DNA of 63,199 nt, filler included, from Sphacelaria rigidula (GCA_964200075.2; 6 parts of 6 records of this genome joined end to end with filler, not necessarily neighbours in it); one strand, 5' to 3'; numbered from the whole stretch's first letter, positions 10,452 to 62,994 are shown. Notes: generated by a model not told the origin, from the sequence alone. Made by a program: numbers and translations.

Positions 10452-10551
10452 NNNNNNNNNNNNNNNNNNNNNNNNNNNNNNNNNNNNNNNNNNNNTTAAT
10501 TAATTAANNNNNNNNNNNNNNNNNNNNNNNNNNNNNNNNNNNNNNNNNNNN
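10452..10551. other. Artificial contig linker N44-TTAATTAATTAA-N44
   Basis: Identical 100-bp spacer recurs five times; the 12-mer has stops in all six frames. Confidence 0.97.
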
Positions 10552-11149
10552 GAGGCGGTGGGACAGGCGAAGAAAGAAGCAGGTATGCCGACGTCAACGT
10601 GTTGACCCGGGAGCGGATCTGACGCATGTGTATCGCGAGTCAGAGGCGCAGGTGCTGGAAGATTCCCAGAAGGCGGCGTGGGTGTAGCGCGAACTGGTGA
10701 ACGCGATGGGCGCGTTGGGCGCACAAGGGGCGCGGGCGGTGTTGGTACAACACTAAGCACACGGCCAGTTGTTGGAGGCATGGTGCGGGCCGTTGGGGCA
10801 CAAGGTGGCGGCGCCGACGTATTGCTACGCGCGGCCGGCGATGGTGGTGGCATTACAGCCCACGAAGAATTGGCACGAGCTGCCGACCGAGAGCGCGTGT
10901 TGTCGGAGATGAGGTGAACAGTTGGTGGTGGCGGCGCCGAGATGTTCGCGCGAGGGCCGAGAGTGCGAAAGTCGTAAAAATCAGCAGCTGTGTGCGCTAA
11001 GCCATGCAAGACTGTATCAGGGGGAAGAGGGCGGGGGCCACCCATGTGCAGACCTGTTTCGGGGCATTGCAGGTCGAGCGCGTAGATGGGCGTAGAAAAA
11101 CGCCGGGAAGGGTAGACGGCTGGTTCGTCAGGTTTAGTCAAGCGGCAAG

Positions 11150-12133
11150 CGGGACTGAAATCTACCGCTGTAGGAGGTAGGGGTAATCGCGAAAGAAGGT
11201 CAGCATTGCCGTTGGTCTTGCCCGAACGGTGTCTAACAGTGTACTGGTAGGCAGTCAAGAACTCCAGCCACCGTTGTACGCGGGGGTTATGTTCTCCAAC
11301 CTTGGCGAGTTGTTCAAGAGCTCCGTGATCTGTGTAGATGTGGAAAAGCACGTGGAACAAGTACTGTCGAAGCCTTTTAATAGCCCCAGTTATGACTTCG
11401 CGTTCGAGTTCGAGTGGACTCCAGTTTGCCTCGTTTGGGAGGGTTGCGCGGCTGATGTACAAAAAAGGTCGAACAGAGCCATCCAGTTGAGGCTAATTCA
11501 AAACGGCGCCGAACCCATTTGTGCTAGCATCGGTGTGTAGTTGGAAAAGACGCGAGCCGTCTTACACCGCATCCTAATCCGGAAAACAAAGAACCGGTTT
11601 TTCGGTCAGTGTTTTGAGCAGTTCGCGAACGGTGGCTTCCATGTCTTTAGTGAAGACAAACGAGACGTTTTTCTTCAATAAATCTGTGATGGGCCGGATC
11701 CACTTGGACAAATTGGGCAAAAATTTGCGATAATATGAAAGTTCACCCAACAGCGAGCGAAGCTACGAAATATTGGTGGGCATGGGCAGATCACTCATAG
11801 CTTTGGCCTTGTTCTTGTCTGGGTGCAATCCAGCAGGAGAGATAGAGTGACCCAAGAAATCCAATTCAGTGGCTCCGAGTCGAGCTTTGGATGGAGGCAC
11901 TTTCAAGTCGTGTGTACGCAAGCAGGAGAGAAATTCCCGTAGAGTGCGAACATGCACCTTGGGGGAGGCATCAAAAGCGATAGCATCGTCTAGATACATG
12001 ATAACATGCTCGAGACCGTCAGTAACGCGTTGCATGAGGTGTTGAAAGCAGCCAGGTGCGGTGGCAGCGCCTTGTGGCATACGAAGCCATTCAAAAAGCC
12101 CTGAAGATGTACAGCATGCTGTCAAGGGAACTG
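11150..12133 (-). pseudogene. pol: Gypsy pol: RT C-terminal half and RNase H
   Basis: VPLTACCTSSGLFEWLRMPQGAATAPGCFQ..VIMYLDD..LDFLGH; YISRATLPNEANWSPLELE..IYTDHGALEQL..RVQRWLEFL..NGNADLLSRLP. Confidence 0.92.
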
Positions 12134-13457
12134 CACACGTGGACAAATAGCACCGTGTAGGACGAGCTGCACAGGGTTCTCCACAGTCTTTGTGAAAACC
12201 CCTGCGCAGCATTTGCAAACCCTAGTACCTGTAGTAGCATTTTGCATAGCGTTTTCGTCGAAACCCTGCAAGCAACCCTGTGGAGAGGCCTTCCCAATTT
12301 CGAAAATTCCAAATTATTTTGGTATAAAATCTGTAATTTTGTTTTTGGAATAGTTTCTCCTGCTGTCCGAGATAAATTCTTTTTTGCCCGACAAATCAGG
12401 TAAAAAGGAATTTATCTCGGACAGCAGGAGAAGCTATTCAAAACAGGTCCTTTTTTCGCCCATTTCATTTGGGCAAAAAAAGGATATATTTCGAACAGCA
12501 GAAGAACCTATTCAAAATAGATCCTTTTTTCGCCCATTTGGATTGGGAAAAAAAAGGATCTATTTCGAACAGCTTATTCTGCTGCGCAAATCCCATGCAC
12601 ACTGGCAGAGTTGGAATTAGAACAGCAGAAGAAGCTCAAAATAAATCTTCACTTTGCCCTCCAATTTCATTCGGAAATTGGGGGGAAAAAGATTTATTGC
12701 AAGCAGTGTCAGTTGTGCATATCCTGCATACGGCACCGTTACCAGCGTTTGGGATTATATACGCAACAAAAGTTGTTGCGAGCAATTCATCCTGTACCCC
12801 CAAAGGATGAATATTTTTCAACAGCTTTCGCTGAGTAGAGATCCCACACATTGGTCACGTGTGTATGTCCACACCTGTGCTTACAGCACAATTTGGGCGT
12901 GATAGGGTGCTGGTGGAACGGTCTATACCTCGCATATCAGTCCATGTTACTTTTGAAAACCCCGTGGTGCGCAGTCTACCAAAATCACTCAACCGAGTAT
13001 GCTTTTTTTAGAGAGGTTTTTGCTTGATAGTTAATAGAAGCACAAAATATGTTCTGTGGCACAGCAAGCTAGGTAGCTCAATGTGCACTCTAACACACTC
13101 CATATCACGAAGTCGTGGATCCGAGTCCCACTGCTACAAGTTCGTGACCGTTTTTTTCTGCCAGTACCATGCCCATGCTGTAGGGAGTATATTGTATGTG
13201 CGCTGCAAAGGCTGTACAGCATGTTATCAGCGATGAATTCTGCACGAAGTGACGAAACCCTGTGAAGCGCCCTGTGTGGCACAAAGGAATACCCTACAGT
13301 CGAATCCCCGCGAGAAATCCTGCGCAGTTTTCCTGAACCCTGTGAAGCGTCCCGTGGGGCGCAAAAACAAACTACAGCCAGATCCCCGCGAGAAACACTG
13401 CACAGTTTCCCTGAACCCTGTAGACGTGCCCCACAGGGTGCTATTTGTCCACGTTTG
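12134..13457. mobile_element. Non-autonomous CACTA/EnSpm(CMC)-like DNA transposon inserted in the Gypsy RT
   Basis: TIRs CACACGTGGACAAATAGCACCGTG / revcomp CAAACGTGGACAAATAGCACCCTG; 2-bp TG duplication; removal restores RT IHPDT-VPLT; subterminal ~80-bp tandem repeats at 13258-13425. Confidence 0.82.
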
Positions 13458-15258
13458 TGTATCGGGGTGAATTGCATTTTGGAAAAATCCAGATGCCAGA
13501 TCGAAAGTGCTGAATATTTTCCCTTCGCCGAGAGAGTCGAAGACTTCGTCGATGCGAGGTATGGGGAGTTTCCTCACGACAGTGACGCGGTTCAGCCGTT
13601 TGTAGTTCACGGTGATGCGGATGGTGCCATCTTTTTTGGGAACGACCACGAGGGGTGAGGCCCATGGCGAAGACGAGTGTTGAATCAGACCAGCTCCTAA
13701 GTATGCATCTAAAATAGCATCGACTTTTTTTTGTGAGGAGGGGGTTCGTTCGATACGATCGAGATGGGATCGGCGAAACGCCAGGTTGCAGGGTTATCTC
13801 GAATGGCAATGTTTAACAATGCCCGAGATCCGTCTTGGATCGGGAAAACCTGTCCTGGTATTCCAGGAGAACATCTTGTAGCTCTTGGATGACGGCAGGC
13901 TCCCAGCCCCGACCATGTAGGTCAAAATGGATATCACGCAAATGAGGTGGAAGTTGATGCCAGATTTGCAAGAAATGTTCCCTAGACTCGACCGATAAGC
14001 GTTGAAGCACTTCATCAGGAGGTTCAGCAGGGGGTCTGTCGGGTTCCACCGCAGAAATCTGAGTCGGGGATGAGCCGGAGAGAGTGAAGTATGGCTCATC
14101 GACGCAGCGGACAAAACCATCAGCCGGCGGCGTGAGATCAGGCGCCGGAGGGTCGGCTACACAGTCCAGAGGAATGTGCATAAGAGGAGCCGCGGCGATG
14201 CCCAAGACATCGCCAGGTTCCAAGTTAGCATGGCCTGTGAGAGGCAGGAGTTGTTCGCCGTCCGAGACAAAATGCTCAGTGCCAGCGGGCGCACCGACTT
14301 TAGGCAGTGATTCCGCAAGGTGGTGGCCGGTGAGGGCAGGCATACCGTTGCGGTAGACAAGCAAAACTTCCAAGAGTTGAGGCTCGTCGGAAAGGGTGAC
14401 GCCAGAACTGCCATTATACCGAAGATGGTAAACCGCTCCAGTAGCGTGCTCATTCTTTTTGTAGGCTAAGGCACCATTGAGGGTACCAAAGTATTCTAGT
14501 TGGAGTTCTCCACAAGGCGCCGACTGAGGCGAAAATGGTTGGAGGGTGCGGTACGTACGTTGGTCCAACCGCATGTAGCTGTCTCTGCCACGAAGGAGAG
14601 CATGATGCATTGTGCTATCAGGGACGATGTAAGCCCCGACTGCGAGGCTAGCCGAACGTGTGTCATTGTGAAAAAATTGTACACTAAGACGAACAGATTT
14701 ACGTGGCGTCAAGGCTGTTTTGGAGTCGCCGAAACCGCCCCAAACGCGAGGATGGGTGATGATTTCGCAGACATCGGAAGCAGCGCTCGTCTGCTTCATA
14801 TGATTCCACATGGATTCGTTTATGAATGTCTGTGGACTACCGCTGTCTAACAACGAGACGCACTTGGCGCGCGCGGTGGCGTAAGGGCCGCAGTGTAATG
14901 CTACGCGGGTAGTGAAGGTGGCAGGATCAACGGACACCTTGCCACCAACAAGATCAGGGCCATGTTCAGATAACGTGAATTGGTCAGGATCAATTGGACT
15001 GACCGTGAAAACGGATGGCGGGTGATCCGCGGGGGGTTCGAAGGTATCGGTAGACAGCGCGGGGGTCTGATCTGATCGTGAAGGGTAGCGTGAATCAAGA
15101 TTTTGATCAATCTCGTAAATGACTGGCTCGGAAGTACAAGGGTCAGCTAATAGAGATCGCTGCGAAGTGCGACAAGGGTCATCGGTGGAGGATGCGGTAC
15201 CGTCTGAAAGGTCCGATTTGGATTCCTCTTGGATGCCTGGCAATGTAATCGAGCACAA
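13458..15258 (-). pseudogene. pol: Gypsy pol: aspartic protease, PR-RT domain and RT N-terminal half
   Basis: ORF 13813..15258 has CVSLLDSGSPQTFI and ALLRGRD; then PFEITLQPGVSPIPSRSYRTNP and VVPKKDGTIRITVNYKRLN..PIPRIDEVFDSLGEGKIFSTFDLASGFFQ via frameshifts. Confidence 0.9.
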
Positions 15259-15959: not shown

Positions 15960-18900
15960 TCATGAAAGATCCAGTGTTTCTGGCATTGGGATTTGAGTTG
16001 TTGTTAGTCGGCCCTGTTTGCTGGTGATGACCATGCGAAGACTGAGAAGGGCGGAAAGAACTATCTCTGTTTCGAGTTCCTGAGACGGTGTTGGTGGTGT
16101 GGCGGCGGTCGTGACTTGAGCGAGAGTCGCTATGATTGTGTAAAGGTTGGCGATGGTGGCGAGAAGGTGGACAATACTCGCGTATGCGTTTTTGTCATCG
16201 GCGCCACGCCTGCCTGTTGCTCTGAAGTTCAGGGTCCATGAGCGAAAACGTATTGATGCAAGGTTCAGGGCAATCACGCATACTGTGGCTAGTACCATTG
16301 CAATTAATGCATGTGTTAGCATGGCGACGAAAAGCATCCCTGCGAGTCGAAGGCGAAAGCAAGGGGGTCCACAAATGTGGGTCGTCGGTGATGAAAGCAG
16401 TCGTGGAAACGACATGAACGTCATCAAAAGTGTCTGCCGAAAAAGGCCAAGAATCGAAGCTTGCACGGAACGGGTCTCTTTTGCTACGAACAGACATAAT
16501 CGATCCACCGACAGAGTTTGGTGTCCAAGTATTACTGGACAAAGTCTGAGTGCGTCCACGAGGCCCGGAGGTACTCGTTGATGCGGCACGCAAGGTCTGC
16601 GAAGACCCAGACGAATGGCAGGCGTCAAAGTATGTTCCTGATCTACAAACGCATCCCACATCGCGTCTACGGAGGCGTTAGGCACCTCTTTGTGCGTCAA
16701 AGCGCCCGGAAACAAAGACGGCATCAGCGTCGGAAATTGCTGAGCGATACTATTGCGAACGTATGTTTGACACATAGCATCACTAGGGCCATTCTGTCGC
16801 CCGGTACCAGTCACACTCGACACCAAAAGCTTGAATTCGCGGAGGTAGTCAGCAAAGGGCACGTCTGCTGCCACGGCGAAGGAACTGAGACGCTTGATGG
16901 CGCCTGCCTGATCAGTCTTATCAAAATAGCTTATGAAACGCCTTTCCAAATTGCTGAATAATAACGGCGCTGGTTGTCCGCTGGCACAATCTTGATTCAT
17001 GGCGGCGAAGGAGTCGAGAATCTGAGTCAAAGAGGCAACGACGTCAGGGGAGCGACGGCGGATTGAGCGGTGCAAAGCCTCATGCAGCGGTGTTTGCCAC
17101 CCATCAACCCAGTCAGAGTCTTCGAAACGTTGTCGACCAGTTGCATCGGCCAATTCAAGGATGATGCGCATCGTTCGAGTCATTGAGGAAATGAGAGCTG
17201 ACGTAGACTGACCAGAGTCTTCATTGTCTGCAGCAGGCATGATTTTGATATGCCAGAGTTTCTTTACATCCATTCGTAAGTACTCTCGCCTTATGACAGC
17301 GACACGAGAAGCTTTTCTACGAGTATCGGAAGCCATTTTATCCGCGGCAGCTTGGTGTTTGGCTGCGGCGGCGGCAGCTAGTGAACGAGCCGAGTTGGAA
17401 GACAATGGGCGAGCCGAGTTGTCACTATCACTATCCGTGAGACCTAAAAGGCAAGCAGACGCAGCTGCTAAAGGAGGCGTTACTTGCCCGACGGCCGGTG
17501 AGGGCCGCATGGATCGCATCGAAGCGTACTGCCGGGGTCTGGTCGTAGACGAGCCGGATGACTGGTGGCCAGAACGTTTATGGGTGCCCCGGGTCGACCA
17601 TCGAGCCCTGATGTTGGTGCGGTGGGTTCCCTGTCCACGGCGTGGTGCGGCCCCGGTAGAGTCGTCGTCAGAGTCGTCATCACCACGATGGTGGCGAGAG
17701 GGGTGCGACGTGATCCAAGCCCCATCATCGTCGGGCGGCAGTGTGTTGCGAGCTGTCCGCATGGCGGCAAAGAGGGCGGCGACGGCGGTCTCAAAAGCAA
17801 GACGACCGTCCCCGGCATCAATGGTCAAGTAGAGCACGATTCGTTCGACGGTAAGAGCGCCTGGGTCGTTTCGCGGCAGCTGTCCACCTTGTTGAAGGAA
17901 GGGGAAGATCACACTATAAACTGGCAGAGTGAGCGAGCGCCAAGCCTGCTCAGAGGCGCGACGAACGTTGTTGCGGTTTTATTTCCCAGAAAGTTGGCTT
18001 AGCGTCCAACCAAGCCAACCACGTTCGCTGCCCTGAAGGCGCAGCCCGGGTGTGACGGCAGGGGGCGCTGAAGCCCGAGGGACCTGCAGTGGTGCAGGCG
18101 GGGTGAGCGTAGGCGAAGCCGCAGAAGCCGCGGCAGCAGCGTGTAAGCGCGCGGGCTGGCGGGCTGCCGTAGAGCTGGAAATGGCGGCAGCGGGTGCGGG
18201 CTCCTTCGGCGTTGTCCTGAGAAGCGGCAGGTGTTGCTCCTGTTCAAGGGAACGTAAGGCCGTCGCTACAGTCTCTGTTTCGGTCGCGCATTGACGCAAG
18301 CGATGCTCGTCGCGTCGAATGGGGTTGCGCATTTCGTCAAATGGGGTCGCGCATTTCGTCGAACGCAGCAAGGCGTTCGGAGAGAGTGCGTTGGGCCGCC
18401 CGCTGGCGGCTGGTTGCCGAATCGACGGCCCGACGTTGGCGCGTCAATCTCGTCGTGAGGTCGTCCTGGGGAAGGCGATGGCCAGCGTCATCCGCCGTTT
18501 GGCGGGGTGAGGGTGGCAGAGGGCGCGTGGTCGGGTGCAGGGTGCGGTATTCCACGAGAATCTGCTCCTGATCGAAGCGGGGCCCATGCAACCAGAGTCG
18601 GGGAAGAAGGCCTGGCAGGCAATGCTCGACGCCCAACAGGGGGCGGTCGTCCGTGAAAGCATCTGGTGCAGGCGCCGGAGCGGGATTCGTGGCAGGAGTA
18701 CCCTGCGGCGAAGGGTCCGATTCCGCCGGAGCGACCGTGACAGGGGTGTTCTCCTGATCCGTCGTGGCGGGAGCCGCAGTTGTCGCCGCGCGGGAGGCGA
18801 AAGGTGTGACACGAGTGCTCTCTGCATCCGTATCAATGTCTGCAGCCGCAGTAGGTGTAGGGGCTGCGATGGGCGCGGTAGTCGAAGGTGCCGGGGCGTC

Positions 18901-20193
18901 AGCCATGATGGAAGTAGATCGCAGGTATCGACGGAGATCTGCGATTTGTTGTTCCACCGCACGCACAGTGGCAGCATCAGGGTAGGGCGGAAGGGCACGG
19001 TTGGTGCTGTGCCGGTCTCGCAAAGATGCCGGAATGTCAATGAACGCGTCATCGATGGGCAATCGTGAATTTTCATGGGGCCGATCGACAGATTTAGGGC
19101 GAGAGGATTCCGTGGTCGATGACAATCCCGATAGCAATGCACGTACATCATGAACATAGGTGGTATGGTCACCACGGGGGACAGTGGCATCACCATCCAT
19201 ATCCAAATCAAAGGGAACGTCTGAGGTTGATCGTTCGTCAGCATGGGCTGTAGCTGCTGGTACAGAATCGTGATGATTCGCATTACTGTCAAAGTGAACA
19301 TGATCTGCTGAGGACGTTGAATGTTGAACGGCTGAGTGAAACGCGGCCGCAAGCGCTTGTGAAAGGGCAGTTGTTGCCGGACCGTCAGAAACGACAGCCG
19401 GTGATGAACGAAGCAAGTGCTCAAGAGCCGTCACTAGAGGGAAGGGCCCTTTGGAAGGTTGTTCGAAGCGGCCAAGACACGAGGAGGATGTTCGGCGCGA
19501 GGGCTGGTGAACATAAGTGCCCTCACGATACAGGTCGTGTCGGCGCGGGCGCTGTAAGGCGTCGGAACCCTCGTCACCGCGAGCGTGGGGTGAGTCAATA
19601 ACCGCGGTAGATGCCAGAAGCGGTTTGCGTTTCACAACAGTGGCAACGCGTGGCGACTCGTCAGACATGTGGGAACCCCGAGACGGAGCACGTTGCACAA
19701 CAGAGCGAGCGCGTAGCGACTTGTCGATCTTGTAGGAACTCCGAGACGGTGGGCATTTCACAACAGAGCGAGCGCGCAGCGACTGGCCGATAGTGTCGAG
19801 AGTCTTGGGCAGTGAACGATCCGCGACAGAGCGAGCGCGCAGCGACTCGTCGATAATGTCGGGAGTCTTGAACGGTGTACGTTTCGCAACAGAGCGAGCG
19901 CGGAGCGACTCGTCGATCGTGTTGGAAGTCTTGGACAAATGGCGGTCGTGGTCACCAGTAGCGGCCAAGTCTTGAGAGGTGTAGTCGCCAGAGTTGAGGG
20001 ACGAAGCTCTGTCAGACTTCACTTCTTCGTGTACAGGGGAAGTAAGAGTGAAGGGTTTTGAAGGAATTGATGAAAGCAAACGCTGACGGCGTGAAGGTTT
20101 GTAAGTAGGCGGGGCCGAGGAGAGAATTATTTCCTGCGGTTGCGCCAAGTTAAACTGAAGAGGTAGAAATGGACGCCAGCCACCAGAGCACAA
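15960..20193 (-). pseudogene. gag: Very long Gag-like ORF (interrupted) with capsid-like core and CCHC knuckle
   Basis: ORFs 18337..20193, 17979..18371, 15960..17912 and 16195..16659 join via a 22-bp duplication, one TAA and one frameshift. Knuckle CINCNGTSHSMRDC; core (WVDGW, FADYLREFKLLVS) homologous to 28911..30755. Confidence 0.8.
19590..19925 (-). repeat. 63-bp (21-aa) coding tandem repeat, ~5.5 units
   Basis: IDESLRARSVAKRTPFKTPDI / IDESLRARSVADRSLPKTLDT / IGQSLRARSVVKCPPSRSSYK / IDKSLRARSVVQRAPSRGSHM / SDESPRVATVVKRKPLLASTA. Confidence 0.9.
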
Positions 20194-21002
20194 GAGTTCT
20201 GGTATAATACATACCCTGCATTCTATTGTCCAGGGTATGGTATAATAAAAGCAGGTAATGTAGACTCGGCAGGAGATTGTAAGTACCGAAACAAATTAAG
20301 CAGTAAAGACTACATAATTTTATAAACGGAGTTACACCAAACTAGAGTAGACTGCTGTAACAATAACAATCAGCGTAATCTCGGCAATTCCGAGTACCGA
20401 AAAGGCAGACAGCAGAGTAAAAAGGTGGAAATTATTAAACGCCGAAAAGGGAGGAACTGCGGCGGAAATAAGATATCTGTAGAGGTGACTGTGTGGGGGG
20501 GGAGTAGGGGGGGCGAACTGAAGGTTATCACAGGTGTAAATAATCGCAAAGGAACAAACTTACAGATGAACCCAACAACAGTTGTCGCACGGGAGGTTTG
20601 GTGCAAGAGCAAAACCTAACAATGAGGCGGCTGTGAAGGAAGACAGACACCCCGGCAGATGTCCGGCGGGCGCACTGGGCACGTCAAATATGACAGGAAT
20701 ACTTAATGGCCAGGCACACGCTGGACAAGGGTAATTCAGTGGTGCAAGCAGAACACTGCACACAGGAGGTGCAGAAGAACACAACCAAAGAGCACGAAGG
20801 TAGACACCAATACTAGTGTAGGACACGTTGCCAAAAGGGAGGCGATGTGCAAATATCTGTGATGTGGAGGTCGTGAGTCCTCTCAGAACCATGTTAGGAC
20901 CGAGATCGTTTTGTTTGAGCGTGAACCGAGAAGTGTGTACTATATTGTCGATAGCATTTGATCGATTCTGGTTTTCATGCGAGGGGGTCAAATTTGGTGC
21001 CC

Positions 21003-21102
21003 NNNNNNNNNNNNNNNNNNNNNNNNNNNNNNNNNNNNNNNNNNNNTTAATTAATTAANNNNNNNNNNNNNNNNNNNNNNNNNNNNNNNNNNNNNNNNNN
21101 NN
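21003..21102. other. Artificial contig linker
   Basis: N44-TTAATTAATTAA-N44. Confidence 0.97.
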
Positions 21103-21557: not shown

Positions 21558-23480
21558 TTATTCCATGTCCCACGCCGTGTCAGGGTTGCGTAAGACAGCT
21601 GTGTCGATGTTCCCTTTGTCGTGTCGTTGTAGGCACCAAGATCCTCGGTGAGCGGTCGGCATCTCGGTGTAGTAATCGTCCTGGAGATGGATCTTGAGAC
21701 GATCCGGATCATCTAGGAAGCGGATGTAGTAGGAATCGTCCGCCTCAGGATCTATTAAACGAATCTTCCCCAGCCACCACCGCGAATCCATAGCCCTGTA
21801 CAAAACATATGCACCTTTCGGCAAACGTGTCTTCGAAAAAGAGCGCAGGTATTGCGAACGCGAAATGAGACTATAGCCCAAAATGACAAATCGTGCCGAG
21901 TGTTCTCGGGCCAGTTCACGAGCTTCTGCGCCTTTTCGCATAGACCTATATCGTTTGTTCAACGGGCGGTGTTGGGCGACATCTCTGACCCAATATAAAA
22001 GTATCTCTCTTCAAAAATGACGCAAATACTCCTGCCTTTCCCACGTGACACGCATGAGACATTTCCAGTGAGTCTGATACATAACCGCAATTTTACCGCC
22101 TCGACCTCGGACTAATTGATGGCCCGAGATACGATCTACCACTACACGTTCAAGAGGACCGTCAGCGTCTTTAACCGTCATGTGATACGGTGGGGTTTTC
22201 GTCGCATACCTCGTTAGCACATACTGACTGAGACCCATAGGCAATTGCTTGGGCATATCAGTAGTGTCGTTAGGGGGCAGACACGGTTTGCACCGAAGCA
22301 TCGAGGCCCGGTTTTTGGGTTTGACGCCAGATTCATCCGTGGGGAAATCCAAATCCAAAAGCTTCTCACCTACTGGCCTATCGTCAGGTGCGGTATCACA
22401 GGGCCCAATTGCCAAAATCTTCCAAGGATCAGTCCAATTCAAGCGAAGCTTCGACTTCAACACCTTATCCGACGACGACTTAGCGGAGCTTGCACCTTGG
22501 GTTACAGTTCGCACATCGTTATACACCCATGCCCATTCACCTACTTTTCACACCGGACGGTTGTTCACTGCATCATCTAACACGCTGTTTGCCTTAGCTA
22601 CCTCTGCTGCGTTGATCAAGTTCTGCTCCCGTACCACCTCATATGCAAGACGAAGACGATTACTAACAGACATATGATACTCCACAATATCCCGATCCAA
22701 ACTCTGATGGCCACCAGGGGGTTTCCTGTCGAACACTGTCAATGGCAACCTGGGCATACGACCAATATGAACTTCATTGGGAGCCAAGCCTGTGGCAGCA
22801 TTGACGGAGTTGTTGTAGTTCATTTGGACAAGGGGTAAGTGCAGGTCCCAGTCCGTTTGTCACTGTGGCAAGCACTTGCGCCATCGTGTAATTATCTCGT
22901 TCGGTCCCACCGTTAGTGGACGGATGGTATAAATTAGTAAAAATACGATGGGCACCCAGGAGATTACTGATCGCGGCAAAAACTTTGCCGGCAAAATGTG
23001 GGCCGTTATCGGATAACAAACGTTTGGGGACACCCCACTGAGAGATGTATGTGTACACGAGGACGTTGGCAGTCCCTTCTGCACTGTAGTTGGCCCCCGA
23101 AACAGCATTCATCACAGCATGTCGACTGAACTGATCCGTAAACAACAAAATTTACTTGTTACCACTATCAGTGAGGGGCAGGGGGCCAAAGTAGTCCCAT
23201 GAAACTATTTCACCAGGCCCATTGGGGAGGGGCATAGAGATTACCGGCCATCTAATTGTTTGACGCGAAGGTTTGCGTCCTTGGCAAAGAAGACACCGCC
23301 TTACCCACCAACGCACACATTAGTTCATACAAATCCACCAAACAAAACGCTGAAGCATCTGAGAGGTCCTAGCGACGCCCAGATGTGTGGATGCTTGTGA
23401 GTGGCATTCATGGAGAACCCATGGACGCAGAAGCATCGGAACATAAATACGTACGGGGGCATTACCCAACAAACGGGCGT
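21558..23480 (-). pseudogene. pol: Integrase (HHCC, DDE core, GPY/F-like motif) with C-terminal chromodomain and Tudor-like domain
   Basis: HECHSQASTHLG..RCLLCQGRK; LFTDQFSR..WGVPKRLLSDNGPHF..YHPSTNGGTER; YNNSVNAATGLAPNE; KLRLNWTDPWKI; VVDRISGHQ..MYQTHWKCLMRVTWERQEYL; GAYVLYRAMDSRWWLGKI..SYYIRFLDD. Confidence 0.88.
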
Positions 23481-24381
23481 GACTACTTGTAGGTTTCCCT
23501 CCAGGAGGTTTCGTGGGGGGCTGGTGAACTAAAACAACAACGCCATCATCATCCGTATAAAGCATCCCTTTACGCGATAATTCAGTAACTTCATCCTGTG
23601 TGGGGGCTCGGTGGGACCCTACTGGCAAAAGAAACTCAGTTTCTGGAAAGGGGGAGGGGCATCCTTTGGATAGATCATGTATAGCTGCTCTACAAGCAGG
23701 TTCAGCTTGCTGTTCCCGAGCCCAATCGGCGTGAGAAAAGAGAGTCAGTTCCTTAAATACATTGTCGGAGGGGTTGTCTGAAACGCAGGGGATCGAATCG
23801 CTGTGGGATGGACACGACGCGTTATTTGGATCAAGGTCAGAAGGGGTGGTCAGTGTATTCTCAAACGGAACGTTCACCTCTATTCCTACGTTGTGGAGGG
23901 TGTCGGATGGTGTGGTACCGGAGGTGGTACCATCACGGGGTGGAGGAGGCACACTCGAGGTCTCGACTGTGGTGGGCAGAGGTGGTTTGGAAGGTGTCGA
24001 TTTTCTGGGGGCTTTGCGCCGTGGAGGTAGCGGGGGCGCAAGGAGGCTATCGGGGACTGGAATGGGGTTGAGGATCGGGAGGTCTGGGCCGGCTGCTGCC
24101 AGGGCGGCAGCGGTTTCCGCGGCCCGGCGTCCTCGGGTCCGGCTCAAGATGAGGTCTCGGACTTGAACCGGGAGGACGCAGTCGGTAGGAACCGGCTCTA
24201 CAGTGCAAACCATCCGATGACCAGACGCACAAAATTGATTATACCCGCCGATAGTTGCACGAATTTCACCCCTACCTGAACACAACGATCGTGGGGCCAA
24301 ACTGCCCAATACAGAAGCGTGAGCCGAAGGTGTCAGCTTATTTTCAACAAGTGACGAGTTGTGGTTTAGTGAGAGTGGATT

Positions 24382-27225
24382 TTAGAGTCCGCGATGACCA
24401 TTTGTGCTTTTGAAATATACAATGTCTTCGGTGGGGTCTGTGATGCGACTCAAGGCGGAATTGTCGATGGGTTGGGCTGGCAGGGGCAAGCGTGACAGGA
24501 AGTCGGCGTTTGCGTTTTGGGGACCTGTGCGGTACTTCAACGTGAAGCTGTAGGAAGACAGGATTTCAAACCAGCGTTGAACCCGGGCGTTGTGTTCCGC
24601 CATTTTGGTGAGGTTTTCCAAAGACTTATGGTCGGTATAAATCACAAACGGGAGGTCATACAAATATTGCCGGAGTCGGCGCACTCCCCAAACAATTGCA
24701 CCTGCTTCTCGTTCCATAACGAACCAGTTCTGTTCGTTTGGGTAGGTAGTTCGGCTCAGATATACAATGGGGCGAACTCCAGCATCGTCTTGTTCCTGTT
24801 TCAGTGTGCAGCCAAACCCAATTTTCGACGAATCCGTGTGCAGTCGGAACGGACGGGAGCCATTTTCAGCAGCTGACCAGTCTGGAAAAACCAGAATTGG
24901 TGGCTTTGACAATGTGTCGAGCTGCTCTCGTACAATTTTTTCCATTGCCGACGTGAACACGAATTTCACCCCCTTCTTGAGGAGGGTGGTGAGAGGTTTT
25001 AGAGTTTGGGCTAAATTTAGCAGATATTGACGGTAGTAACTCAAACCACCTAGTAAAGAGCGCAGTTGAGAGACATCGCGTGGCATGGGCATCTCTCTAA
25101 GTGCGGCAACTTCGTCGAGGTTGGGGCTACGACCTTCAGGGCTGATACAATGGCCTAGGAACTCGATGCGCGTGGCTCCAATGCGGGATTTAGATGGGGC
25201 AAGCTTCAAATTATTTTGTTCAAAACGAGCAAAGAAGGACGCCAAATGTTTGACGTGTTCAGCAGATGTACTGCCGTGAACCACCGCATCGTCGAGGTAC
25301 ATGCGGCATTCGAACAGTCCATCAATGACGCGAAACATCACGCATTGAAACGCTCCTAGGGCGCCGGCGGCACCTTGTGGGGTGACCAGCCACTCCTATA
25401 GACCTGACGGGGTGCAAAACGCCGTCAGCTCGATAGAGTGCGGATCCATCACCAGTTGGTGGTAACCGGATTGCATGTCGAAGTTCGAAAAAACTTTGCC
25501 CCCGCCGAGGGAGTCAATGACTTCATCTATCCGGGGAAGAGGTAGACGTGCGATTTTGGTGACTGCGTTTATTCGTTGATAATTGACGGTCAGTCGGATC
25601 TTACCATTCTTCTTCCGGACGACTACCAAAGGCGAGGGCCACGGAGACGTTGAGTGCCGTATTAACCCGGCGGACAACTACTCGTCAAGAATTACTTGAA
25701 TCTTACCCGCTAGAAGAGGGTTTGTACGGTACGGACGCATGGCGATAGGTGTCGTACCATCAGGAATGTTGATTTTGAACGGTATAGTGTTGCAGCGGCC
25801 TGAACCTGTTGACGATTTGAAAAACCGTTTAGAGCATCGTATCAAGATGGAGCGCAACCGATCAATCACCGTGGGTGCTCAACCCTCACCAGAAAAATCA
25901 AACGCAATGTGTCTCAAATGGGAGGGAATTTCATCCCATAGTCGTTGAAAACTAACACGTTGCTCTGGCGAGAATGTATCTAGTAAGGCGGTCGAAGGGT
26001 TTGTGCCAGGCGTATCAGTCGATTCGTCTACAACCATGGGGTCAGTCTTGTCGAACGAAGTGGAACCGTTTGTCTCTGAGCTGTCTGATGATGTTTGCGG
26101 TGGCACCTTCAGACATACATTCGACAAGGCTGCCCGTGGGAGGGGCGCTTGAGCAAAACCCAACAACGGACCAGGGAGGACATCGAGACATGCAGAGGAT
26201 GTGAGGGGAATGGATTGCCGACCCTCATGGACAAATACATCGGTCTCATCAAAGGGGGGAATACTGTCTAGGGTTTGGTTGGGATTGGTCAAGTCGATCG
26301 AGTACTGTCCAGTGAGGACGGAGGATCCGTTCCGTCTCACAAGATTCACATGGCTGCGTTGAGGTTCACGGGACAGAAAGACGACGTGGTCTCCAACATA
26401 ATACAGTCGAAAAGCATCACCTGTTTGTGTTGGGTCATCGACATAGGCCTGAGCTCCTGGATCAGCGTCGTGATGTCCCAATTTCAATTTGCCTGTCAGT
26501 GGTCGGTTCAAAACAGGTGAGTTTGTCGTGTATGTATGTGTGGAAAAACGTAGCCAGCTTTCACGTCCCAAGAGAACATCAACCGACATGGAACCATGGG
26601 GCACAATTAGTGCCCACAAAGCTAATCGTGCAGTGGGACTCGTGTCATCGAAGAATGACACACTGAGTCGTACTGATTGATTAACCGTAAGGGGCGTGGA
26701 GGCACCAAATCCGCCAAAAACACGAGGCGGAACAGTAGAAAGGCAATGTTTGTCTGCTGCTCCAGCGTCCATCATGTGTTGCCAGCAGCTGGCTGTGATG
26801 AAAGTTTGTGGCGAGCCAGCTTCGGGCAGGGCAACGGCCATCAAAGAGCGTGTTGCATGCACTCCACTATGCATACCTATTCGGGTTCTGAAGGAGGTGT
26901 CATCCATGAGTGCAGTTCCACTTACCAAGTCCGGTCCGTATTCCGACAAGTGATCTGCAGCCACATCGCTCTTGTGTTGTTGGGCAATAGTACTAAAATA
27001 GATTCGAGATTGATCCTCCGGAACGAATGTGTTCTCCGAAGGGCCGCCGTGGCACGGGGGGTTTTGCAGGGCGTGTGGTGCAGTAGACGAAAGTTGGATT
27101 TCGTACACAGTCAGGGATGGACGACGCCTAGGAAAGGAAATGGATGTGGATGTTTGCAATATTTTTTTGAAGCTATGAGAAACAGGGGAGAAACAGTCCT
27201 GATTGTACTGCAATGTTGACGGCAC
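24382..27225 (-). pseudogene. pol: Gypsy pol: protease (catalytic motif decayed), RT and RNase H
   Basis: VALPEAGSPQTFI (vs LLDSGS in the sister element), DVLLGRE; SPLVVVRKKNGKIRLTVNYQRIN, FDMQSGYHQ, MYLDD, LHTDSSKIGFG, YTDHKSL, NADFLSR; in-frame stops at ~25678 and ~25396. Confidence 0.92.
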
Positions 27226-28337: not shown

Positions 28338-31127
28338 TCAGGTTGTACGTTTGGCATCGGTAGAGTCGTGGGTGCCATTCTGGCGGGCTGTGTTCGGGGC
28401 AGTAGATGTGTTTGTGGGGGGGCTAGGAGTATTTGGGTGTTGAGTCTGGTTTGGCGGTTGAAAAGCGCCAGAATGGGCGGGGGGTACGTGGGAGGGGGCC
28501 GCGTTAGCGGGCTGAGCGTGAAAATAGGGATGTTGGTAATGAGGGGGGGCGCGAATTTCACCCTTATAGTGGAGATTGCCGCGCCGGGGGCGTTGGTATG
28601 AATTGCGGGCGCCGCTGAGTTGAGGGCGACGGTAAGACCGCATACGTGCTTGCCAAGTTGGCCAAAAGTGCGCAAACTGGGGCTCGGAGAACCTGGGGTT
28701 TAGTACCCCAAATGCGTTTGTGAACGGGGCTTCGCAGTGGCGCATCGAGTGCGTTGGAACTTGACCATCTGCGGAGTACCCCGTCTGAGAATTGAATCAA
28801 GTGCCACAGTTCAGGCAGTGCTCTTTGCAGCGCCGGATTACATCTGATCGAAGGTTAGGGTCTCCGTTACTGGCCCAGAGGGGGGGGGTCTGTTGTGTTC
28901 ATCGAAGTGCTTACCTGAAACACTTCCGGCCAAATTTCCGCCGCGAAGGGCCAGCTTGGAAAACGATTGTTGAATGCGTCTGGGGTGTGTGCGAACATGA
29001 CCTCCCCAGTAGAGGCCATGGACGCAGGAATCCATGGGCGTTGGTTTGTTTTAGAAGGTGGTGGTTGGGAGTGAGACGCAGGGGGGCGGCAACTGGGTGA
29101 GGCAAAAGGGTGGTGGAAGCATTGTGGCTGTGCCGTACAGAGGGGCCGTTGTGAATGGCGGAGGAGCCACTCTGTTTTGCATCCGTCACATCTAATGCCG
29201 GAGTGCGGTTGGACCGGAGTTCATCTAAATGCGTCCACATAGCGTTCAAGGTTGAAAACGAGACCGGTGAAGTAGCTGCGGTACCGACAAAAACGGTCGG
29301 CATGAGGCTAAGGTATTGGCGTCCCATATTGGAACGGAAACGACTCATCACCACTTCTTGTGATGGAACAGGTTCGCTGCCACCGTTTACCGTAACCGAA
29401 ATCAAAGTGCGAAATTCCTTGAGGTAGTGGTCAAAAGGGGTGTCGACGGGTACTTTAAACGATAGTAGGCGTTCGAGTGACTCGCCTTCGTGGGTGGTGT
29501 CCAGGGATGAACTGATGAGTCTGAGAAGGAGGGTAAAAGCGGCGTAACCGCCATTACCGAGGGTGAGGGAGCGTGCGGCTTGTGCGAAGTGGTGATCGAG
29601 CATGTTGGACAATTTAGATGCCTCGGGAGAGCTGAAATCGATGGCATCCTCCAAAGCCTTTTGTAAGCGTCGAAGCCAGCCATCTACCCAATTACTGGTC
29701 CCAAGGTCGACGAATGTATCGTCGTAGTGTGAGAGGATATCAGTAACTATAGTAGTGAGGGATTGTCGTAACTGGCTGCAGGAAAGGCTTACATCAGATC
29801 CCGCCGGAAAGGGTAGTGAAGGCTTGACTTTGATCTGAGAGTGACGCTGTTTGGTGACAGTGGATGATAGCGGAAGGAAATCGCTCAAAGTGGGGGGCGC
29901 CGGACGTGAAGCGGCCGCACTCGTGTCATTATGAGACCCGTCAGTGCTGTCCGGCTCACTATCGAATGAAGGGCGACGATGACGGCGAGGTCGTGACTGC
30001 TGCGAAATGTGAGATTTACCACTATCCTTGAGACGGTTTTTCCCTTTCCCTTGAACAGTCCAACTGCCGCCACTGTCCGTTGAATTGTGCCCTACGTGAC
30101 CTGTGTGAAGGTGACTAGTGGCAGTAGGGTGTGAACGGTCCATACCATCAGCAGGGCCGTGTACTGCCATGCGTACCTGCTCAATTTCCGTGAACAGCCC
30201 GATGAGGGGCCCGACGCACTCATGCCGTAGCGCGAGGCTAATTTCGAAACGAGGGTTTGAACGTATGCATTGAACGACGCCTGCCAACGTTACGGTCTCG
30301 GTGTGTTTCGGAAACCAATTGAGGATCTTCATCGAACTGTCAGTGACGGGAACAGTGAGGCGCTGTGCCTGACACGCGTAGGTAAGGAGGGTGTCAGGGT
30401 CGTGGACAAAATCGTAGAGGGGAATAGCTGCTAAAGTTTCTACACCAGAAAGATGAAGACCGTCGGAACGAGTAGCCTTAGGAACCAGCGTTGGGTGAGT
30501 GGGTTTAGTGTAGAGTGACTTGTTCGCTGTGAAGGCAAATGTAGGGGGCGTTTTGCCGCGGTGAACTTTGGGGGGCACACCAAACGTGGTTGAAACGCCG
30601 GGTGCGATCGTCTCAAGTGGCATGGGAGGTAGTCCCGTGGCTAGAGGGGCGACATTCGGAGTGGCATTGGAAAGTGCAGGTGAACCAGTGGATGAGTGAT
30701 CAGAATCGGAATCAAGGTCGATGGGATCACGGGTGAGCAGACGTAACTGTTTCATCTGCTCGTCCAGTGAAGATTGAATGACGGAAATGCGATAGGTGGA
30801 TTGTTCCGCCGTCGCATTGTGCTGTTGTAAAGCTTATTCATATTGGGCTTTAGCCGCCTGCAAAGTCTTGGCGGTTTCCCGGAGGAGGCGGGCTTCTTTG
30901 TTCTGCCCCTCCGCCAAGGCTTTGCGTTTGGGTTCGACCTCACGACGGACGCGCTGGATTTCTTGAGCGTGCTCGAAAGCTTCACGGTTCTTACGTTCTA
31001 CTTGCGCTTGTACGGTCTGGGCCAACAAGTTGTCCCAGTACGCGGCTTGTTCCCCGCGGGAAACTTTATCCCACGCATGGGCTGAAATAGCAGCGGGACG
31101 GCTATGTTTGAACTGGGCCTTGAACAC
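28338..31127 (-). pseudogene. gag: Gag-like ORF (interrupted)
   Basis: ORFs 30834..31127 (coiled-coil-like), 28911..30755 (WVDGW, FDHYLKEFRTLIS) and a knuckle CLNC..HSMRHC at 28734-28817 homologous to the contig 2 Gag. Confidence 0.78.
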
Positions 31128-31552: not shown

Positions 31553-31652
31553 NNNNNNNNNNNNNNNNNNNNNNNNNNNNNNNNNNNNNNNNNNNNTTAA
31601 TTAATTAANNNNNNNNNNNNNNNNNNNNNNNNNNNNNNNNNNNNNNNNNNNN
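31553..31652. other. Artificial contig linker
   Basis: N44-TTAATTAATTAA-N44. Confidence 0.97.
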
Positions 31653-35419: not shown

Positions 35420-35535
35420 CCCTTAGACCGCGAGGTTAGTCTTTCTGGATCATGCATACTCTTTNNNNNNNNNNTACTCTTTTCCACTTGAAGTTGATGC
35501 CGATTCAACAGAAGACTAACCTCGCGGTCTAAAGG
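35420..35535. mobile_element. piggyBac-like element (both ends present, interior lost in a 10-N gap)
   Basis: TTAA|CCCTTAGACCGCGAGGTTAGTCTT...AAGACTAACCTCGCGGTCTAAAGG|TTAA: ~24-bp TIR with one mismatch and TTAA TSD. Confidence 0.85.
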
Positions 35536-42101: not shown

Positions 42102-42201
42102 NNNNNNNNNNNNNNNNNNNNNNNNNNNNNNNNNNNNNNNNNNNNTTAATTAATTAANNNNNNNNNNNNNNNNNNNNNNNNNNNNNNNNNNNNNNNNNNN
42201 N
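42102..42201. other. Artificial contig linker
   Basis: N44-TTAATTAATTAA-N44. Confidence 0.97.
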
Positions 42202-52650: not shown

Positions 52651-52750
52651 NNNNNNNNNNNNNNNNNNNNNNNNNNNNNNNNNNNNNNNNNNNNTTAATT
52701 AATTAANNNNNNNNNNNNNNNNNNNNNNNNNNNNNNNNNNNNNNNNNNNN
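52651..52750. other. Artificial contig linker
   Basis: N44-TTAATTAATTAA-N44. Confidence 0.97.
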
Positions 52751-59182: not shown

Positions 59183-59433
59183 TGTGACGGTAGCCAGTGG
59201 AAGCACTGTTGGATCACTGCTGTTGAGGGACTCCCCAGTCTCACTGGCCTCAGTTTCAGTTGTCAGCCTTTACAGTATTCCATTAGTCAGGAGTGCCCTT
59301 CCAGGGCACCAGCTAGACCTGCAGATACTATATTCGTGTCCCCGGTCATTATCCAGAACCCTCCAGAATCTCCGTGCCCTCAGTCATTATCCATATCATC
59401 ACTGCCAACTCAACGTACGGCATTTTTGTCGCA
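59183..59433 (-). repeat. 3' LTR (251 bp)
   Basis: Direct repeat of 62742-62994; short G-run (PPT-like) immediately inside on the minus strand. Confidence 0.92.
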
Positions 59434-62741: not shown

Positions 62742-62994
62742 TGTGACGGCAGCCAGTGGAAGCACTGTTGGATCACTGCTGTTGAGGGACTCCCCAGTCT
62801 CACTGGCCTCAGTTTCAGTTGTCAGCCTTTACAATATTCCATTAGTCAGGAGTGCCCTTCCAGGACACCAGCTAGACCTTCAGATACCATATCCGTGTCC
62901 CCGGTCATTATCCAGAACCCTCCAGAATCTCCGTGCCCTCAGTCATTATCCATATCATCACTACCAACTCAACGTACGGCGTATTTTCGTCACA
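62742..62994 (-). repeat. 5' LTR (253 bp)
   Basis: TGTGACG...CGTCACA inverted termini; direct repeat of 59183-59433. Confidence 0.92.

Follow-up and report, generated by a model that had tools for sequence, protein, structure and literature searches.

A 2025 paper on Ectocarpus transposons distinguishes four Gypsy lineages (PMC12477816; here and below, published work is cited for the sections of each paper considered). Three of them carry a C-terminal chromodomain and are unrelated to chromoviruses or Chronos, and one of these three, exemplified by Gypsy-12_Ec32, always has a NADAR domain. The fourth lineage, Gypsy-10_Ec32, has a C-terminal Tudor domain and was called the first transposable element reported with one. 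The chromodomain of MAGGY directs integration to chromatin methylated at H3K9. The classical group I chromodomain has a cage of three aromatics (Y24, W45 and Y48 in HP1 numbering), whereas the chromodomains of group II, a type reported so far from plant elements alone (the Tekay, Galadriel and Reina clades), have a reduced cage and localise to heterochromatin (PMC3350952). Brown algae lack H3K27 methylation and DNA methylation; H3K79me2 and H4K20me3 go with repression, and H3K36me3 lies over expressed gene bodies (PMC13076208). Here we analyse a Ty3/gypsy element copy in a 63,199-nucleotide stretch of DNA from Sphacelaria rigidula (GCA_964200075.2; six parts of six records joined end to end with filler; hereafter the window). 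Its integrase frame continues past a predicted chromodomain into a predicted Tudor-like barrel.

The element lies on the minus strand. Pfam assigns RVT_1, RT_RNaseH, Integrase_H2C2 and rve to pieces of open reading frame (ORF) between 25677 and 22777, and, with these domains upstream, 22547..21558 is therefore the 3' end of a Ty3/gypsy pol. In the window copy RT_RNaseH reaches an E-value of 8.8e-33 and Integrase_H2C2 scores 27.7 bits, above its cut-off of 25.5; rve, at E 1.5e-6 and 28.8 bits, falls under its cut-off of 32.6 in the broken copy. The H2C2 zinc-binding domain, the rve catalytic core and, upstream in pol, the reverse transcriptase (RT)-RNase H pair of a Ty3/gypsy integrase are thus all present. 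Intact relatives have all Ty3/gypsy domains by Pfam, and the family profile matches the Ty3 Gag-Pol structure among PDB sequences (E 7.4e-8). By tblastn, the intact polyproteins of two related loci (L001 and L002) together cover 27108..21579. The 3' portion, 22547..21558, is a single frame of 329 codons (read-through translation P0001) that is interrupted by one in-frame TGA (22013..22011, residue 179, read as X) and closes with a TAA at 21560..21558. The peptides quoted in an earlier reading of the bare sequence (the original prediction) are found exactly on this strand, as a GPY/F-like stretch followed by a chromodomain-like block from about 22154. The frame also continues as predicted past the TGA and through a basic helix into LPKGAY...RGSWCLQRH.

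The TGA is private to the window copy, and the segment downstream of it is coding and under purifying selection. In an alignment of 44 sequences, chosen for coverage and including relatives 26-74% identical to the window copy, all 43 relatives have a residue in the TGA column (R in 33, S in 7, H in 3), and all 44 share one arrangement, running from the integrase end through CxxC, chromodomain and helix to the barrel. Two close relatives, 71-74% identical and one of them from Sphacelaria rigidula, pass the column with an arginine and end at the same point; relatives in general terminate a median of 9 residues past the last aligned residue. Contigs assembled from four public runs (two studies) supply hundreds of related pieces over the stretch. 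At plus-strand position 22013 they carry a letter other than the window's, one that restores an arginine codon, at depths of 23521/23609 (X1), 13086/13086 (X2), 8423/8488 (X3) and 43521/43521 (X4). An origin of the TGA from CGA, as originally suggested, is therefore plausible. When the 150 amino acids past the TGA were searched against 1.84 billion representative proteins, 226 matched at E <= 1e-3, 72 at <= 1e-10 and 4 at <= 1e-30, and the matches sit at the C-terminus of the hit proteins where these are long enough; a 324-amino-acid Sphacelaria protein used as query gave 85 hits. Among 261 fetched homologues, a single BLASTP segment spans residues 169-190 in 135, while 3 end and 6 start nearby, which gives no hint of a conserved stop.

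Intact copies tell the same story. DNA of relatives was obtained from three metagenome loci: L001 has an intact pol ORF of 1636 amino acids, L002 an ORF of 2386 amino acids that is open at its 3' end, and L003 an ORF of 608 amino acids. All three run through the chromodomain and barrel module, in which the full-length polyproteins P0236, P0237 and P0238 (1670-2170 amino acids) likewise terminate. Since synonymous sites were saturated and Nei-Gojobori synonymous distances mostly undefined, we used the uncorrected ratio of nonsynonymous to synonymous differences (pN/pS) with a bootstrap. Owing to its decay, the window copy was not paired with relatives in the bootstrap. In the three intact-locus pairs pN/pS was 0.33, 0.40 and 0.41 over barrel codons 241-312, 0.33-0.42 over linker plus barrel and 0.12-0.35 over the chromodomain, values that overstate omega because of the saturation. 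None of 2000 bootstraps reached 1 for any pair or segment.

The module is conserved, and in models it folds as a chromodomain followed by a Tudor domain. AlphaFold2, run on the read-through translation (X at the TGA) with the 44-sequence alignment, modelled residues 1-130 poorly. From about 130 to 320, ten-residue block means of the predicted local distance difference test (pLDDT) were 76-96, mostly around 90. The chromodomain model consists of strands at 137-147, 153-161 and 167-171 followed by helices at 172-187 (pLDDT about 84-93). With VIA-align, against 48,161 representative chains, residues 132-189 superpose on the Chp1 chromodomain (Z 7.0, root-mean-square deviation (rmsd) 1.6 Å, 52 of 55 residues); they also match HP1 (rmsd 1.9 Å, 51 of 53), Polycomb, CHD1, Rhino and cpSRP43. 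Foldseek on the full-length model places a chromodomain first at rank 46 (cpSRP43), and VIA-align was needed to reveal the fold. At the sequence level, the family profile matches MPP8 among PDB sequences (E 0.0024). Of 44 relatives, 9 match Pfam Chromo (PF00385) at E <= 0.01, with the curated cut-off shown to be passed for P0188 only (26.2 versus 25.1 bits); the window copy itself has a weak match to BRWD_AD (E 0.053). Upon alignment with MPP8, cage site 1 is occupied by aliphatic residues or F (I17, L12, V11, F3 of 44), site 2 by tryptophan (W161, in 41 of 44) and site 3 by L26, I13, A2 and F1, which by sequence is the group II cage pattern.

The barrel was modelled from the window's own 150 residues past the TGA with a 66-sequence alignment. 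The resulting tail model (pLDDT 88.4, predicted template modelling (TM) score 0.78) begins with helices, continues with a short strand and helix, and ends in five strands (68-72, 78-86, 93-98, 104-108 and 125-130 in tail numbering) with pLDDT above 90. The family profile finds the PHF19 Tudor among PDB sequences without gaps over 40 residues (E 0.006-0.009, weakening to 0.2 with a longer profile) and PHF1 at E 1.8. The first 22 Foldseek matches listed are all PHF19 or PHF1 Tudor structures (probability 1.00, TM score to the target 0.60-0.66, 29-33% identity, rmsd 1.9-2.5 Å), followed by the Tudors of MTF2, PHF20, BAHCC1 and TDRD3. For the barrel, VIA-align gives PHF19 at Z 5.4 (rmsd 2.0 Å, 55 of 57 residues), among many Tudor, Agenet and chromo-barrel matches at Z 4.5-5.6 that include Spindlin, RDM15, LBR, UHRF1 and SAWADEE. 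The model thus has the five-stranded barrel of a Tudor domain at scores that are modest in absolute terms; no single score carries the assignment, which depends on sequence profile, Foldseek and VIA-align agreeing. The ESM Atlas gave no lead for the 150-residue tail, with scores of only 0.80 to unnamed bacterial clusters.

The PHF1 cage consists of Trp41, Tyr47, Phe65 and Phe71, with Asp67; W41A, Y47A and F65A each abolish PHF1 binding, and in MTF2, where the fourth aromatic is absent, binding is weak (PMC7492083). In the algal family the Tyr47 site is W in 58 of 65 sequences, the Phe65 site is F in 55 of 66 and the Asp67 site is D in 56 of 66, so that two of the four cage aromatics are kept. 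The window copy has L at a position that is W family-wide (56 of 65). The original prediction of a group II-like chromodomain, lacking the first and third cage aromatics, followed by a Tudor-like barrel with a partial cage, is supported by these matches.

The two folds are joined by a basic linker with helices at residues 198-215 and 230-236 (pLDDT about 90), and Y200, R214, Y225 and F237 are nearly invariant across the alignment. We also observed, on the minus strand, a conserved CxxC ahead of the chromodomain (22281-22292) and a conserved W-C-L-Q-x-H strand past the barrel (21627-21641), with C in 58 of 66 and H in 52 of 64 sequences. A shared zinc site built from the CxxC and the post-barrel C...H is conceivable; the CxxC region has a pLDDT under 50.

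The same barrel also ends proteins that have no integrase, namely P0029 (828 amino acids), P0154, P0038 (612 amino acids) and P0085 (626 amino acids). The N-terminal parts of P0029 and P0038 are coiled-coil and Arg/Ser-rich, 23% identical to each other and have no Pfam match; P0085 has chromodomain and barrel after an unrelated N-terminal part. These barrels are 51-61% identical to those of L001 and L002, closer than the window copy is. The sequences suggest that the 3' end of the element was captured by another gene or a non-autonomous element.

Table 1. Features of the decayed element copy and its integrase C-terminal module, in window coordinates; residue numbers refer to P0001.
Feature	Coordinates	Strand	Evidence
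Decayed Ty3/gypsy pol (RT, RNase H, integrase, C-terminal module)	21558..27108	-	Pfam, tblastn, stops
Integrase end, GPY/F-like stretch, residues 1-50	22398..22547	-	conserved in 44 aligned relatives; AlphaFold confidence low
CxxC, residues 86-89, upstream of chromodomain	22281..22292	-	alignment; model confidence under 50
Predicted chromodomain, residues 132-189, three strands and C-terminal helix; holds the private TGA	21981..22154	-	AlphaFold, VIA-align, profile
In-frame TGA private to the window copy	22011..22013	-	alignment, run contigs
Basic helical linker, residues 190-236, running into the barrel	21840..21980	-	AlphaFold helices, conservation
Predicted Tudor-like five-strand barrel, residues 237-310	21618..21839	-	AlphaFold, profile, Foldseek, VIA-align
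Short, weakly conserved C-terminal tail and TAA	21558..21617	-	sequence, alignment

How might such a module work? In working relatives the integrase extends past the chromodomain, through the basic helical linker, into the Tudor-type β-barrel. The tandem would tether the integration complex to some feature of the host's chromatin, thereby biasing new insertions, as chromoviral chromodomains do; tethering and insertion bias are plausible by this analogy. Possible ligands are a lower methylation state, a tail free of modification, the DNA of the nucleosome or a chromatin protein, and the two weak readers would perhaps act jointly. Because both aromatic cages are incomplete (one of three and two of four aromatics), we only infer histone reading, and canonical trimethyl-lysine binding is therefore unlikely. 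Overall, we assign a probability of roughly 0.6 to an integrase-terminal chromodomain plus Tudor-type tandem that serves as a chromatin tether and biases the insertion of a high-copy brown-algal Ty3/gypsy family.

Several results weigh against this reading. For neither model did a Foldseek match reach E <= 1e-3, and no VIA-align match to either domain reached Z >= 8; scores as modest as those obtained are common for small barrels. Pfam found its Tudor family in none of the 44 sequences and Agenet in one (E 0.0096), and did not find Chromo in the window copy itself. The chromodomain, lacking its first and third cage aromatics, departs from the classical HP1-type cage. In the barrel, the site of PHF1 Trp41 and PHF19 Trp50 is mostly small or polar (A29, G10, S9, D5 of 66) and that of PHF1 Phe71 and PHF19 Tyr80 is proline in 54 of 66, leaving the four-aromatic cage incomplete unless the neighbouring Y71 or W78 (tail numbering) should take their place.

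The missing cage aromatics, which include one whose loss abolishes PHF1 binding, also bear on a different function for the barrel. It could be an SH3/Tudor-fold adaptor for DNA, the nucleosome surface or a host factor rather than a mark reader, with the chromodomain as a degenerate scaffold. The linker is strongly basic, the top VIA-align match to the barrel with its flanks is the non-histone SH3-like translocation signal domain of TraI (Z 6.5, 76 aligned), and retroviral integrase C-terminal domains appear at lower rank in the Foldseek list. The title of a 2026 paper, moreover, has DNA binding override methyl selectivity in the PHF20L1 Tudor. However, the closest matches in both sequence and structure are methyl-lysine-reading Tudor domains, and the W, F and D kept at cage positions are among the best conserved columns. 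We therefore regard such an adaptor as a possibility that is more doubtful than tethering by chromatin readers. An even more tentative proposal, by a slight degree, takes chromodomain, basic helix and Tudor together as one bipartite reader of a combinatorial brown-algal chromatin state. In that proposal the Tudor cassette would itself be mobile, since the barrel also ends the non-integrase proteins P0029 and P0038. If true, this would be the first retroelement integrase to choose its targets with two different reader folds.

Retroelement integrase C-terminal domains are SH3-like and take part in intasome assembly, and the confident AlphaFold model treats the helical linker together with the barrel as a single unit. 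An extension that serves integrase assembly or stability, for example intasome oligomerisation, with no role in target-site choice, could be pictured from this. Yet the occurrence of the barrel at the C-terminus of P0029 and P0038, without an integrase, points to an autonomous function, and the sequence affinity of the barrel is to PCL-type Tudors and not to integrase domains; we consider this explanation improbable. The least credible alternative by far is that the TGA is the true integrase end and the 150 codons downstream are untranslated or neutral. The window copy does have the TGA, and Pfam detects no family in its downstream 150 amino acids. By contrast, the read-through in 43 of 43 relatives, the 135 of 261 homologues that cross the position, the sense codon in four runs, the pN/pS below 1 and the confident fold (pLDDT 88) refute it.

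The window copy of the element is dead, with at least seven in-frame stops and at least two frame changes. Besides the TGA in the chromodomain, stops lie at 25879, 25678, 25396, 24382, 23320 and 22548, and frame changes around 23150 and 22800 spread the integrase core over three frames. Between 21500 and 22600, comparison with the other copies in the four runs lists about 74 differing places. At 17-18 of these the window copy has T for their C, and at 13 it has A for their G, so that C-to-T-type decay is over-represented on both strands of this copy. Self-comparison of the window revealed no long terminal repeat (LTR) pair for the element, nor was one found for L001 within its contig, and because of this the ends of the element are undefined. 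Runs of 44 N occur in pairs, the two members separated by 12 bases, at 10452-10551, 21003-21102, 31553-31652, 42102-42201 and 52651-52750, a spacing of about 10,550 bases, and a single run of 10 N at 35465-35474. Such regularity has the look of masking or scaffolding rather than of biology. The element may have some of its 3' end concealed by one of these pairs, situated about 450 bases past its stop codon.

A brown-algal host, guessed in the original prediction, is well supported, since it fits the named relatives, which come from Sphacelaria rigidula, Nemacystus decipiens and Pylaiella littoralis; one run is labelled 'algae metagenome'. A NADAR domain lies on the N-terminal side of L001 (E 1.8e-52), L002 (1.9e-45) and P0238. 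It was not found in the window copy, where the upstream part is decayed, Pfam is blank on the upstream ORFs and tblastn with the relatives' polyproteins matches only downstream of NADAR. The element looks like a member of the NADAR plus chromodomain Gypsy lineage, as compared with Gypsy-12_Ec32 by description only.

The surrounding sequence holds further traces of mobile elements. A second Gypsy pol fragment on the minus strand (10659-15063) has 38-58% protein identity to L001 and L002 over the end of the NADAR ORF, RT and RNase H; it halts close to the N runs at 10452-10551, and neither an integrase nor a reader module was found to go with it. Minus-strand ORFs at 15960-17978 (672 codons) and 28911-30833 (640 codons) have no Pfam match and by eye have motifs in common. 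Each lies directly upstream, in the minus-strand sense, of a Gypsy pol region, and they may be gag-like ORFs of these two elements. A 63-bp tandem repeat in five to six copies (19627-20000) lies within a 652-codon minus-strand ORF, 18337..20295, that has no Pfam match; in L001, tandem repeats of 78 bp precede the NADAR ORF (L001 886-1272). Further along, a direct repeat of about 250 bases, 96% identical (59183-59433 and 62742-62994, copies 3559 bases apart), could represent the two LTRs of an element that is small or non-autonomous.

Among mobile elements that pick their landing sites from host chromatin, those with an integrase fused to a chromatin reader offer the clearest example, and nearly all known fusions have a single chromodomain. 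A conserved tandem of two candidate readers in a high-copy brown-algal family would provide a natural system for studying combinatorial reading and insertion, in a host lineage whose chromatin marks set it apart from animals, plants and fungi. The tandem also suggests that a lineage apparently annotated as 'chromodomain' may hold a second, overlooked domain. Once its ligand is known, the module could serve as a compact probe of brown-algal chromatin states.

How new is this arrangement? The original prediction knew of no described integrase with chromodomain and Tudor. The claim stands for the tandem, which is not stated in the sections of PMC12477816 considered, and falls for the parts, as that paper reports each domain separately on brown-algal Gypsy elements. 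A full-text literature search found no other paper that describes a Tudor domain with a retrotransposon integrase, and the VIA-align lists contain no solved chain spanning both domains, which is weak evidence as the lists cover representatives only. As far as checked, then, the parts are known and the chromodomain plus Tudor tandem on one integrase is undescribed.

Set beside its closest structural relatives, the Tudors of PHF1, PHF19 and MTF2 (6wau, 6wat, 4bd3, 4hcz, 5xfr), the barrel shares five strands and the G, DGL, LGKI and F-x-D motifs, at 26-33% identity and an rmsd of about 2 Å over 45-55 residues. Unlike them, it has only two of four cage aromatics, extra N-terminal helices and the conserved WCLQxH strand, and it sits on a retroelement integrase, whereas the PHF1, PHF19 and MTF2 proteins are accessory to Polycomb repressive complex 2 (PRC2). 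Group II chromoviruses likewise have an integrase C-terminal chromodomain that keeps the middle cage tryptophan without the first and third aromatics, with a targeting role presumed there as it is here (PMC3350952); unlike this element, chromoviruses lack a second reader domain. ECR-1, a centromeric element of Ectocarpus, differs from this family in keeping all three cage aromatics (PMC11541908).

The nearest comparisons, made by description, are to the brown-algal lineages themselves (PMC12477816). The Gypsy-12_Ec32 lineage is, like this element, a Ty3/gypsy of brown algae whose integrase has a chromodomain fused to its C-terminus. It is described with a 'putative C-terminal chromodomain', and the sections considered mention no Tudor-like barrel after it. 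In Gypsy-10_Ec32, as here, a Tudor-type domain ends a brown-algal Gypsy integrase. That lineage is separate from the chromodomain lineages, whereas the element analysed here is predicted to have both domains on one integrase.

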